The notes beneath the pieces are model-generated. The model did no database searches. It had not been told where the DNA came from and saw only the letters and a program-made list of their open reading frames with translations. Source: Amoebophrya sp. A120 (taxonomy: Eukaryota > Protista > Dinoflagellata). Taken from it: DNA of 64,000 nt. The stretch spans positions 3,052,515-3,116,514 of the forward strand of contig CAJINV010000002.1 of NCBI GenBank assembly GCA_905178155.1. The letters run 5' to 3'. Positions 32,149-62,804 of this stretch are shown piece by piece (positions within the stretch are counted from its first letter, which is position 1; each line of letters opens with the position of its first letter). A program made the position numbers and the translations under genes.

Positions 32149-35100
32149 ATGTCCTCCTTCTCCCTGGGTCTTCGTGGTCATAATCCATTTCGTTTATCGT
32201 CTTCGTGCCCTCAACATAGAAAAGCTTCACGCAATATAGCATCGTCCTCGGTAAAACAAGTTTTTGACATGGCGAACCGTATGCACTGACTGCCAAAGCC
32301 TTGCTTCTTATCACCGTCGTCAAGTAGTTTGCTGCTGCAACAACGTAAACGGCACGCGAAGGTCTTCATCTCCTCCATATCCCTCCTTCCTACGTGTGCG
32401 TGTATCTTTTGGCTGTACACATCAGCAGGCCTAAGCTTTTCATCAGATGTTCGGTCCTCCTGGTAGAAGTTCTTCCCGTTTCGTCTTGAATAAAGCCGCA
32501 CCGAAAATAAGCACCAGATCTGGCCCTCAACATTTTTCACCAGCACGAAGACCTCCAGCTGCACGAGGAGGATGGCCAGCTTGCGTTCGTGTTTTGTTTA
32601 TGCCAAAGGACGACGAGGAGAGCCGGAGCTGCAGGACGTTTGCCAGCTGCAGGGTTCGCTTCCTCGCGACGTCGAGCTCTGGTGCAGAGGCAGCCAGCTT
32701 CGCAGAAACCGTCGTGGACGAGAACAACAAAAGCAGTCTTTACGACGACCTCGACCCCTATTCCAAAACCGTCTGCAAAGTCGTGGACGAAATCGGTCCG
32801 TCCGTCGTCAGCATCGGAGCCGCGCGCGCCGCCAATCTCTTGCAGCCTGGCGGCCAGCAGCACCCACAATTGAACCCGAACCAGGGCGGCGGCCAACCGT
32901 TGCAAATGGGCCAGGGTAGCGGATTCGTGTTGTCGCACAAGGAAGGCTTGATTCTGACGAATCACCATGTCATCCACCAAGCAACGCAAATCTCCGTCAC
33001 GTTCACGACCGACGAGTCTTTCAATATGGCGGTCTCAAACGTTGGTACTAATTCTCAACTCTTACAGAAATAAATTTGCGATGCAGGAATAGCAAATAAA
33101 GCGAAAGCAGGGGCCTTGCGCGTTTTGCATTACAAATTCGCGGCAACGCATTATTTCCTTGCTGATGTACCCCGTCTCTAAAAGTAGCTTCATCGTGTGG
33201 ATGTTCGTTTTGAATTTGATGGTATGTAATTTTGCAGGACAAATCAAGGTGTTGTGTAATAGCTGGGAGTGTGCTTAACAACGTTTGAGCGTCCCATACT
33301 CAAGGCGGAAGTTGTCGGGTCGGACCCCAGCACGGACATCGCTCTGCTGCGGATCAGCAAACAACTCTTCGCCTCTTCATCCTCGGATACCCAATTCGCG
33401 AAGCAGCTAAAACCATTGCAGTTGAAGACGCCCGAAAACACGAAAAACGGAGAAAAGCTGCAAATTGCCCGAGTTGGGCAGCTGTGCATCGCGATCGGGA
33501 ATCCGTTGGGGTTTCAGTCGACAGTGTCCGCCGGGGTGATTTCAGCTTTGAACAGAACGCTGCGGTCGCAATCCGGAATATCCTGTGCAAAAGTTAAAGT
33601 ATCGTACTCGTTGCATTGCAAGCATGCATTACAAAGCTTTTTCCTAAGGTAAATCAGCATCACAAATTTTATTTCTCATGCTGAGGAAATCGAAATTTGT
33701 AATGCATTTATACGAGTGCGATGGCGATACTTTCGCAGTTCATACGGAAGGCTGATTGACAACGTGATCCAAACCGACGTCGCGATCAATCCGGGGAATT
33801 CCGGCGGGCCCTTGGTCAACAGCAACGGTGAAGTTCTGGGAATGAACACGGCGATCATCCTATCAACTGTAAAAATGTCTGGGTCTGGAAGAATTCATGT
33901 TTGTCATGCTTGTCTGGCGTGACTCTTAAATCTGTCATGCACGTTACCCAAGAGCTTCGCTTTTCTGTGATGCAGAAGCGCAGTTTGTCATGCAGAATAG
34001 GCAACACCTAGGAGCTCAGAAACTTGTCATGCTGGGCCAGCATCTGTAGCCTCATCATGAGACGCCACCCAGCATCACAAGTTTCCAGACATCCAGGGAT
34101 TTTTACTTTTGATATATCCAGGGCGCGAACAACATCGCGTTCGCAGTCCCGTCTATCGCAAGAAAAAACTGTTTCACTGTGAACTTGTGATGCAGAGAAT
34201 GGAGCACAGAACGATTTGTCTTGCTACACCTGCAAGACATTGGATTTTTCAGCGTGTTTTCCCTTGGGAAGACCGCATGGCAAATTTTCTGTGTCATGTG
34301 TAACAAACTTGTGATGCAGATCTTGCAAGATCATCACAGTGAAACAGTTTTTTCGTGGGATATCGTCCACCACAATCAGCTGGGTCTGCTCGCAGTTGCT
34401 GACCAAGGGGAAAGTTTTACGCGGGTACATTGGCGTCGCCGGGTTTGCACGGCCGGTTCGGCCGCAACTGGCCCGGCGGTGGAAATTAGGTCTCAACTCC
34501 ACGTATGCCTTGCAAAACAAAATATCGTACTAGTAGGAATATTAGCATGACAAATAAGATGCAGCATGACAAATTGACAAACGGAATTTGTAGTGCTGTT
34601 TTAGTACCTTAGGAAGCAGGGGATTTGTCATGCAGTACTGCGATAATTAGTACTGTACAACTACGAGTGCGATACAACTTTTGCAGTCCATACCACGATC
34701 TTTCAAATCGCCGGGATCGCAGAACACTCGCCCGCCTACAACGCGGGTCTGATGCCGGGGGATTTGGTGTTGTCAGTTGACTATCAACTGCAAATATGTC
34801 TGGGTCTGGAAGAGTCGGGGTTTGTCATGCACGTTCTGCATGACCCCTGAGGTCTGTGATGCAGGTCCTAGCATCACTGAGTTTTTGATGAGGGCTTCTT
34901 GATGCTTATCATGCATGAGAAATGCCCTCTCCGCGTGCCAAGAACTGAACTCCTCTTGCTGCTCATGCAACACAGATATTTTTAGATTCCGCAGGCGCAA
35001 TACAAGTTCCAGCCTTCCAGACCCAGACATATGTGCACTTCATAGTGACTCCGAGCCGGTCGGGAGCATCGATGATTTGTTCCGGATACTGTCTGCCAGA

Positions 35101-62804: not shown

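Follow-up and report, generated by a model that had tools for sequence, protein, structure and literature searches.

Orientation-independent removal of introners is real and well supported in the 64,000-nt stretch of the Amoebophrya sp. A120 genome analyzed here (hereafter, the window), and, as shown with the help of annotated proteins, one polar rule describes the introns in both orientations: N-TAT...ATA-NNNN, where TAT and ATA are the ends of the element. The elements are the published A120 introners, non-autonomous copies of a DNA transposon, and both this class and two-way introners as such are already known; the freedom of orientation takes a stricter form here. Relative to the parts of the literature examined, the new features are the polar cut rule, with neither an AG nor a target preference, and a 10-mer, TTTGTNATGC, that is shared by unrelated families.

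According to the text of PMC7789003, 65% of Amoebophrya introns lack GT-AG, and how they are removed is an open question. A single cut rule turns the varied A120 intron ends into one testable code and fixes the intron borders for re-annotation, and a transposon spliced out at any target and in either orientation would explain the tolerance of tens of thousands of exonic copies.

Introners and their host genes

We curated 58 elements in the window and later added four more (2741, 5074, 62436 and 63084; elements are named by their first position). Logos of the 58 elements show inverted ends, TAT...ATA, with the consensus TAT-S-NNN-TGCAAAA at both ends, matching the published A120 definition (TAT, then seven bases that vary, then consecutive A residues). 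On each side of an element lies one copy of a 5-bp target duplication (TSD). The following host genes and frames were delineated.

54945..63289, + strand: host gene, 1046 aa; 22 introners of mixed orientation plus GT-AG introns 61564-61704 and 62799-63034
1..10446, + strand: host gene whose 5' end lies beyond the window; 15 introners and three GT-AG introns, 1201-1353, 2180-2385 and 3601-3824
41303..46797, + strand: host frame, 1505 aa; introners 44328, 44642, 44924, 45662 and 45949, all five absent from record 9 of run X4
32435..35475, + strand: host frame, 552 aa; six introners, including 33861

Once its 22 elements and two GT-AG introns are removed, 54945..63289 matches P0001, an annotated Amoebophrya sp. 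A120 protein, at 100% identity, and 1..10446 rebuilds to 2148 aa contained in P0002 (2207 aa). The 552-aa frame presumably resembles an HtrA/Deg protease, judging by its motif. Pfam gave no match for five host proteins or frames, including that of the 1046-aa gene, Rfam gave none for positions 43000-64000, and a protein search with exons 842-1291 and 5906-6466 gave none among proteins of up to 2000 aa.

Related copies in opposite orientations and their absence from transcripts

Four pairs of related copies had been proposed to be reverse complements of each other, with each copy acting as an intron. The eight elements are the following.

33861..34114, + strand: introner, family 1, orientation A; TSD CATCC/TATCC; predicted intron 33860-34118, from the reading frame only
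58201..58455, - strand: introner, family 1, orientation B; intron 58200-58459; absent from an X4 contig, removed in the P0001 rebuild
57373..57639, + strand: introner, family 5, orientation A; intron 57372-57643; absent from contig, removed in the P0001 rebuild
59089..59344, - strand: introner, family 5, orientation B; intron 59088-59348; absent from contig, removed in the P0001 rebuild
55058..55295, - strand: introner, family 4, orientation B; intron 55057-55299; absent from contig, removed in the P0001 rebuild
60966..61201, + strand: introner, family 4, orientation A, ends in ATT; intron 60965-61205, from the annotated protein only
45949..46211, + strand: introner, family 2, orientation A, with a degenerate right arm; intron 45948-46215; absent from X4 and X6
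57877..58138, - strand: introner, family 2, orientation B; intron 57876-58142; absent from contig, removed in the P0001 rebuild

All four pairs are indeed mutual reverse complements, at 78–83% identity with the interiors included (identical columns: 212/255 for 33861/58201, 224/271 for 57373/59089, 185/238 for 55058/60966 and 214/267 for 45949/57877), and all eight coordinates are exact element ends. When 45 nt were trimmed from each end, the interiors still matched as reverse complements, with scores of 199, 197, 126 and 207, well above both the same-strand scores (-22 to 29) and the best shuffle score (-1; 200 shuffles per pair), so that the likeness is not an effect of the inverted ends. 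The end variant ATCCAGGGATTTTTAC lies on the + strand in 33861 and on the - strand in 58201.

We compared runs X1, X4, X6 and X9 with positions 43000-62500 of the window, taking X4 and X6, by guess, to be RNA. Contigs from X4 and X6 align colinearly to exons and to nothing else. Among the gaps listed, the missing length equals the summed length of element plus 5 nt in 8/8 cases, covering 20 copies (1135, 590, 1193, 124, 542, 438, 438 and 163 nt; gaps spanning several elements were checked as sums). Three families are missing from contigs both ways: family 2 (45949 and 55830 versus 56311, 57877 and 58743), family 3 (52582, 55353 and 57067 versus 44328, 45662, 58545 and 59855) and family 5 (57373 versus 59089). 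In family 4, removal is seen by contig for 55058 and by P0001 for 60966, and in family 1, by contig for 58201 and by P0002 for 19 and 6468, both oriented as 33861. The annotated proteins P0001 and P0002 may share source data with X4 and X6; transcripts aligned with BLAT are the basis of the published A120 annotation. The 20 raw reads of X9 that were placed all fell on element repeats.

As for the original prediction that these copies work as introns in either orientation, it holds for the six that are missing from the probable-RNA contigs (45949, 55058, 57373, 57877, 58201 and 59089), the evidence being protein P0001 for 60966 and the reading frame for 33861. Their removal had also been said to restore the frame. 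Long + strand frames do open, for example of 915 aa across 18 elements and of 552 aa across six, with the amendment that the unit removed is the element plus 5 nt and not the element alone: the removed piece begins with the single nucleotide that precedes TAT and takes in the 4 nt that follow ATA.

Orientation across families

Clustering of the window elements, from which the 1077-nt element 26580 was excluded, placed 44 of the 58 sequences in five families and left 14 unclustered. Families 1 to 5 split by orientation as 4/1, 8/4, 9/13, 2/1 and 1/1, with no inconsistent edge. A second set comprised at least 144 loci from another assembly, collected by scanning 23 of its 64 parts with the family-2 end pattern; the 144 loci do not overlap the window, and 142 were used. 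TSD-blind detection, which as a control recovered 46 of the 58 curated window elements, yielded 321 elements in these loci, 253 of them with a perfect 5-bp repeat. Host strand was predicted with a window-trained coding model rather than from RNA, and 185 of the calls were confident.

In the orientation tally of the loci (11 elements with fewer than 3/5 TSD matches dropped; 32/368 unclustered), eight families occur in both orientations (68/40, 17/23, 12/6, 9/10, 6/8, 3/2, 2/3 and 2/1), and three small ones are one-way (2/0, 1/0 and 1/0). Orientation in the largest family is uneven (uncorrected p=0.009). Nearest relatives share their orientation in 110 cases and have opposite orientations in 103. 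Within the largest family, an exact 28-nt end pattern occurs 57 times as the 5' arm and 25 times as the 3' arm (p=0.0005), a bias seen in both element orientations, with position 15 the only one that differs singly. In unanchored copies, the 5' and 3' arms have diverged equally (369 versus 358; 190 arms each).

A single polar cut rule

Because a perfect TSD hides the position of the cut, the register is revealed by copies with mismatched TSDs, and we define k as the number of upstream TSD bases that lie inside the intron. The most informative junctions belong to the following elements.

5074..5196, strand unassigned: old introner with decayed TSD TGAAT/TCCCG; the protein fits the 1/4 cut only
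63084..63255, strand unassigned: old introner with fully decayed TSD GGTGC/CCCTG; the protein fits a cut 1 or 2 nt before TAT
337..607, + strand: introner, family 2, orientation A; TSD mismatch at position 5; cut 1 nt or more ahead of the element
44328..44483, - strand: introner, family 3, orientation B; contig piece ends at 44326 with the upstream TSD kept to position 4; cut at most 1 nt before TAT
60265..60415, - strand: introner, family 3, orientation B; contig piece ends at 60263; cut at most 1 nt before TAT

The ends of contig pieces bound k at no more than 1 (44328, 60265), 2 (45662) or 4 (56311). The proteins set it at 1 or more (337), exactly 1 (5074), and 1 or 2 (63084); for 2741, 4426, 61250, 6967 and 55600 they cap it at 3 or 4. 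Only k=1 fits all the informative junctions listed, with the contigs providing an upper bound and the proteins alone the lower bound.

In the two fully rebuilt genes, the rule fits 37/37 introns other than the plain ones. These 37 display 28 different end pairs, all with N-T donors, and 1/37 is GT-AG, in contrast to the standard U2 intron with its GT/GC-AG ends. A single register of 1/4 thus explains the reported variety of A120 intron ends; the nine commonest non-canonical end pairs of A120 all have N-T donors, according to Table S4 of PMC7789003.

Around this fixed cut, the flanking bases appear free. In the 185 loci copies, AG acceptors are not preferred (13/185, with 13.3 expected), GT..AG ends occur in 4/185 at register 1/4, and no base preference was detected at the first intron base (p=0.27), the last two intron bases or the first exon base (p=0.63). 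The idea of a concealed GT-AG was rejected, as GT/GC-AG is found in at most 1/58 window elements in any register. A polar signal in the TSD mismatches of the window (12, 4, 3, 9 and 5 of 58 at positions 1-5) was likewise rejected, the excess at position 1 because mismatches in 184 loci copies follow codon wobble (21/317 versus 17/603, p=0.008).

In 44328-44487, the downstream TSD has changed to AG precisely at the acceptor position; there is no overall trend to AG in the TSD copies (2 downstream versus 3 upstream of 25). At register 1/4, 81 of the 185 loci introns are in phase 0 and 52 in each of the other phases (p=0.011).

Element ends, terminal pairing and the shared 10-mer

Four of the five plain GT-AG host introns start with GTAT, so that on both strands the element end presents the host donor, with any base in first place. 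The TAT/ATA ends deviate at 4/222 bases, compared with 23/370 TSD mismatches (p=0.014); this conservation over the TSD is also found for the 3' end alone (p=0.023) and in copies with decayed TSDs. Both ends of the element therefore seem to remain important once it is inserted.

Terminal pairing is predicted in 46/55 copies on the sense strand and in 49/55 on the antisense strand. Some copies with low predicted pairing of the ends are removed nonetheless (56311, 0.03; 58545, 0.21; 58201, 0.37; 58743, 0.42), and 62436 and 63084 retain 3-4 terminal pairs and an A/T tract. Two tests for RNA-level selection on the pairing were negative: the transcribed strand has no excess of G-U over A-C (18 versus 28), and end positions 4-7 pair in 126/228 cases, with no excess over the within-family expectation of 128.9.

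These results qualify the suggestion, drawn from orientation independence, that the symmetric terminal stem is the splicing signal; the idea of a hairpin in A120 introners is not new, having been proposed in the text of PMC7789003. The ends are the best candidate, given that both orientations are removed and that there is no AG acceptor. Orientation independence alone, however, implies no stem, since the introners of Polarella and Aureococcus are two-way with conventional ends. Moreover, the cut has a polarity, falling 1 nt ahead of the stem and 4 nt beyond it as set by the transcript, and the element end yields N-TAT, the same as the host GTAT donor. A branch point on each strand, the case named as counting against the stem, has a possible counterpart in the branch-like word TNAY that TTTGTNATGC holds on both strands.

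TTTGTNATGC is present in 57/58 window elements and is common to unrelated families. It occurs 121 times forward and 104 times in reverse in the window elements, compared with about 4 occurrences in shuffles and 11 in 37.6 kb of coding sequence. Its usual place is about 30-50 nt in from each end; a distance of 25-55 nt was measured to the 5' end in 275/341 copies and to the 3' end in 255/341. The spacing between occurrences in the same direction peaks at 31-33 nt (200/593 pairs). A spacing of about 31 nt amounts to three helical turns and fits a DNA-binding site such as that of a transposase, which suggests that TTTGTNATGC is such a site; judging from its letters, it could also supply a branch point on either strand. 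Three of the five plain introns (those ending at 1353, 3824 and 61704) finish in ATCACAG, like the reverse form of TTTGTNATGC.

How the introners might be spliced

Our favored reading, to which we give an even chance, is that a modified spliceosome reads the inverted ends of these two-way introners through a combination of the donor word and end pairing. A DDE transposase would insert the element either way round, and each end would then offer N-UAU, the host GUAU donor with its first base free. Pairing of the ends would juxtapose the two sites, and recognition of AG would give way to a fixed distance, with the acceptor lying 4 nt beyond the stem. TTTGTNATGC would serve either as a protein site on DNA or, for either strand, as a source of the branch adenosine. 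Spliceosome proteins and U2, U4, U5 and U6 have been reported in A120, and U1 was not found, as stated in the text of PMC7789003.

A more radical version, which we regard as possible but would not bet on, is a splicing mode governed by structure: any stretch enclosed by TAT...ATA inverted ends would be cut out, the breaks falling 1 nt ahead of the stem and 4 nt beyond it, whatever its orientation, target or end dinucleotides, in a non-lariat or a U1- and AG-independent reaction. If true, this would make every exonic insertion of the transposon silent.

Dedicated or non-spliceosomal machinery might instead measure from the terminal stem, cut and ligate, as proposed for the nonconventional introns of euglenids; this is the strong form of the suggestion that the stem is the signal. 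Such machinery would accommodate the lack of constraint on the first intron base (p=0.27), the last two (AG in 13/185) and the first exon base (p=0.63), as well as the failure to find U1 in A120 (PMC7789003, text), and has a parallel in Euglena, where the part of PMC12501133 consulted describes fixed unequal spacers of 3 nt and 5 nt outside the inverted repeat. We nevertheless consider it rather unlikely, as N-TAT coincides with the GTAT donor of the host, selection on pairing was not detected, and the similar transposon introns of Fritillaria need the U2 spliceosome (10.1101/2025.08.15.670264, in the portion seen).

Another account, which strikes us as unlikely, dispenses with pairing altogether: a relaxed spliceosome would read linear words present on both strands, where the end word acts as the donor, the complementary word marks the 3' side and TTTGTNATGC is the branch site or an enhancer. 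It draws on the occurrence of TTTGTNATGC in 57/58 elements, near both ends and with TNAY on both strands, and on the negative pairing tests. Strict YTRAY branch words, however, are rare and show no strand bias (49 sense versus 44 antisense of 341), families 2 and 3 have opposite directions for the copy of TTTGTNATGC closest to the 3' end, the 31-33 nt spacing suits DNA binding, and just 2/5 plain introns contain the 10-mer.

Removal at the DNA level (through an allele that lacks the element, a processed copy or excision) or an assembly artefact is highly improbable: X4 and X6 are RNA by guess and there are 695 joints beyond those listed, but X1 covers 30/30 bins at a base depth of about 40-50 with contigs that run through or into elements, whereas X4 and X6 cover 21 and 28 of the 30 bins, unevenly, one X4 contig lacks 14 consecutive elements, and the published annotation is transcript-based.

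Relation to known introners and similar introns

In the text of Farhat et al. 2021 (PMC7789003), A120 introners have inverted ends of TAT, 7 nt and AAA, direct repeats of 3-5 nt and non-canonical ends, and their splice position relative to the hairpin is called variable or unknown. The elements studied here share with them the inverted ends, direct repeats, non-GT-AG ends, removal from transcripts and the organism itself, and differ in that one register accounts for the ends. The consulted parts of the literature on Amoebophrya, including the text and supplement of that paper (figures aside), contain no orientation tally, fixed register or shared motif, and PMC11170887 has no description of two-way introns of the A120 type. 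Integrase-like introners with terminal inverted repeats (TIRs) have been reported in A120 (PMC12130899). In strain A25, the commonest ends are TT-NN and the repeats start with TTA (PMC7789003, Table S4 and section 11); the two strains may share an N-U-A donor.

The closest parallels in orientation are the two-way introners of Polarella glacialis (ILE classes 1, 2, 3, 6, 7, 8 and 10) and Aureococcus, as described in the sections consulted of bioRxiv 10.1101/2020.10.14.339549. Like the A120 elements, these are introns derived from DNA transposons, inserted in either orientation, with one splice site within the TSD. They need G-H in the TSD and AG ends, whereas the A120 elements have no required target base and no AG, and Polarella classes 6, 8 and 10 are biased in orientation, whereas the A120 elements are near even. 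The methods of PMC9860276 also allow for introner copies in the opposite orientation.

Among other introns, the nonconventional introns of euglenids (PMC12501133, in part) resemble the A120 elements in their inverted ends, fixed unequal spacers, lack of GT-AG and proposed origin from MITEs. They differ in having CAG/CTG ends, spacers of 3/5 nt and a preferred purine at the exon start, as opposed to TAT/ATA, 1/4 nt and no such preference. The non-canonical introns of Fritillaria borealis (PMC11282704; 10.1101/2025.08.15.670264, both in part) are likewise MITE-derived with TIRs and TSDs, and are processed there by an altered U2 spliceosome; unlike the A120 elements, they have AG-AC/AG-AT ends and prefer a TAC target, and U1 is present. 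Ginger2/TDD transposons are TIR elements as well, and TDD-4 and TDD-5 make 5-bp TSDs, but their ends are TGTNR in place of TAT (PMC2836005, in the part consulted), and no transposase gene was noted in the window. The symmetric introns of fungi work on the coding strand only, going by the excerpt of PMC8469720, which is not the case here.

Distribution and nesting of elements

About 60 elements lie in the roughly 38 kb of coding sequence in the window, compared with zero in 4950 nt of intergenic DNA (10450-11725, 16115-17490, 46800-47670 and 53310-54740); the long frames 11709-16112 and 47670-51854 are also free of elements. For the last gene, the contigs from X4 (4402 nt) and X6 (4424 nt) exceed the spliced sequence remaining in the window, which implies a long 3' region for this gene (63290-64000).

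The family-3 element 18826-19610 hosts a nested 631-nt element, 18947-19577, with 24/24 terminal pairs and the TSD ATTTA. The nested element contains further inner inverted repeats, and removal of the whole of 18826-19610 restores the frame. Element 26580-27656, 1077 nt long, has ends like those of 21588 and a GC-rich repeat array at about 27087-27430, and is probably another nested insertion.
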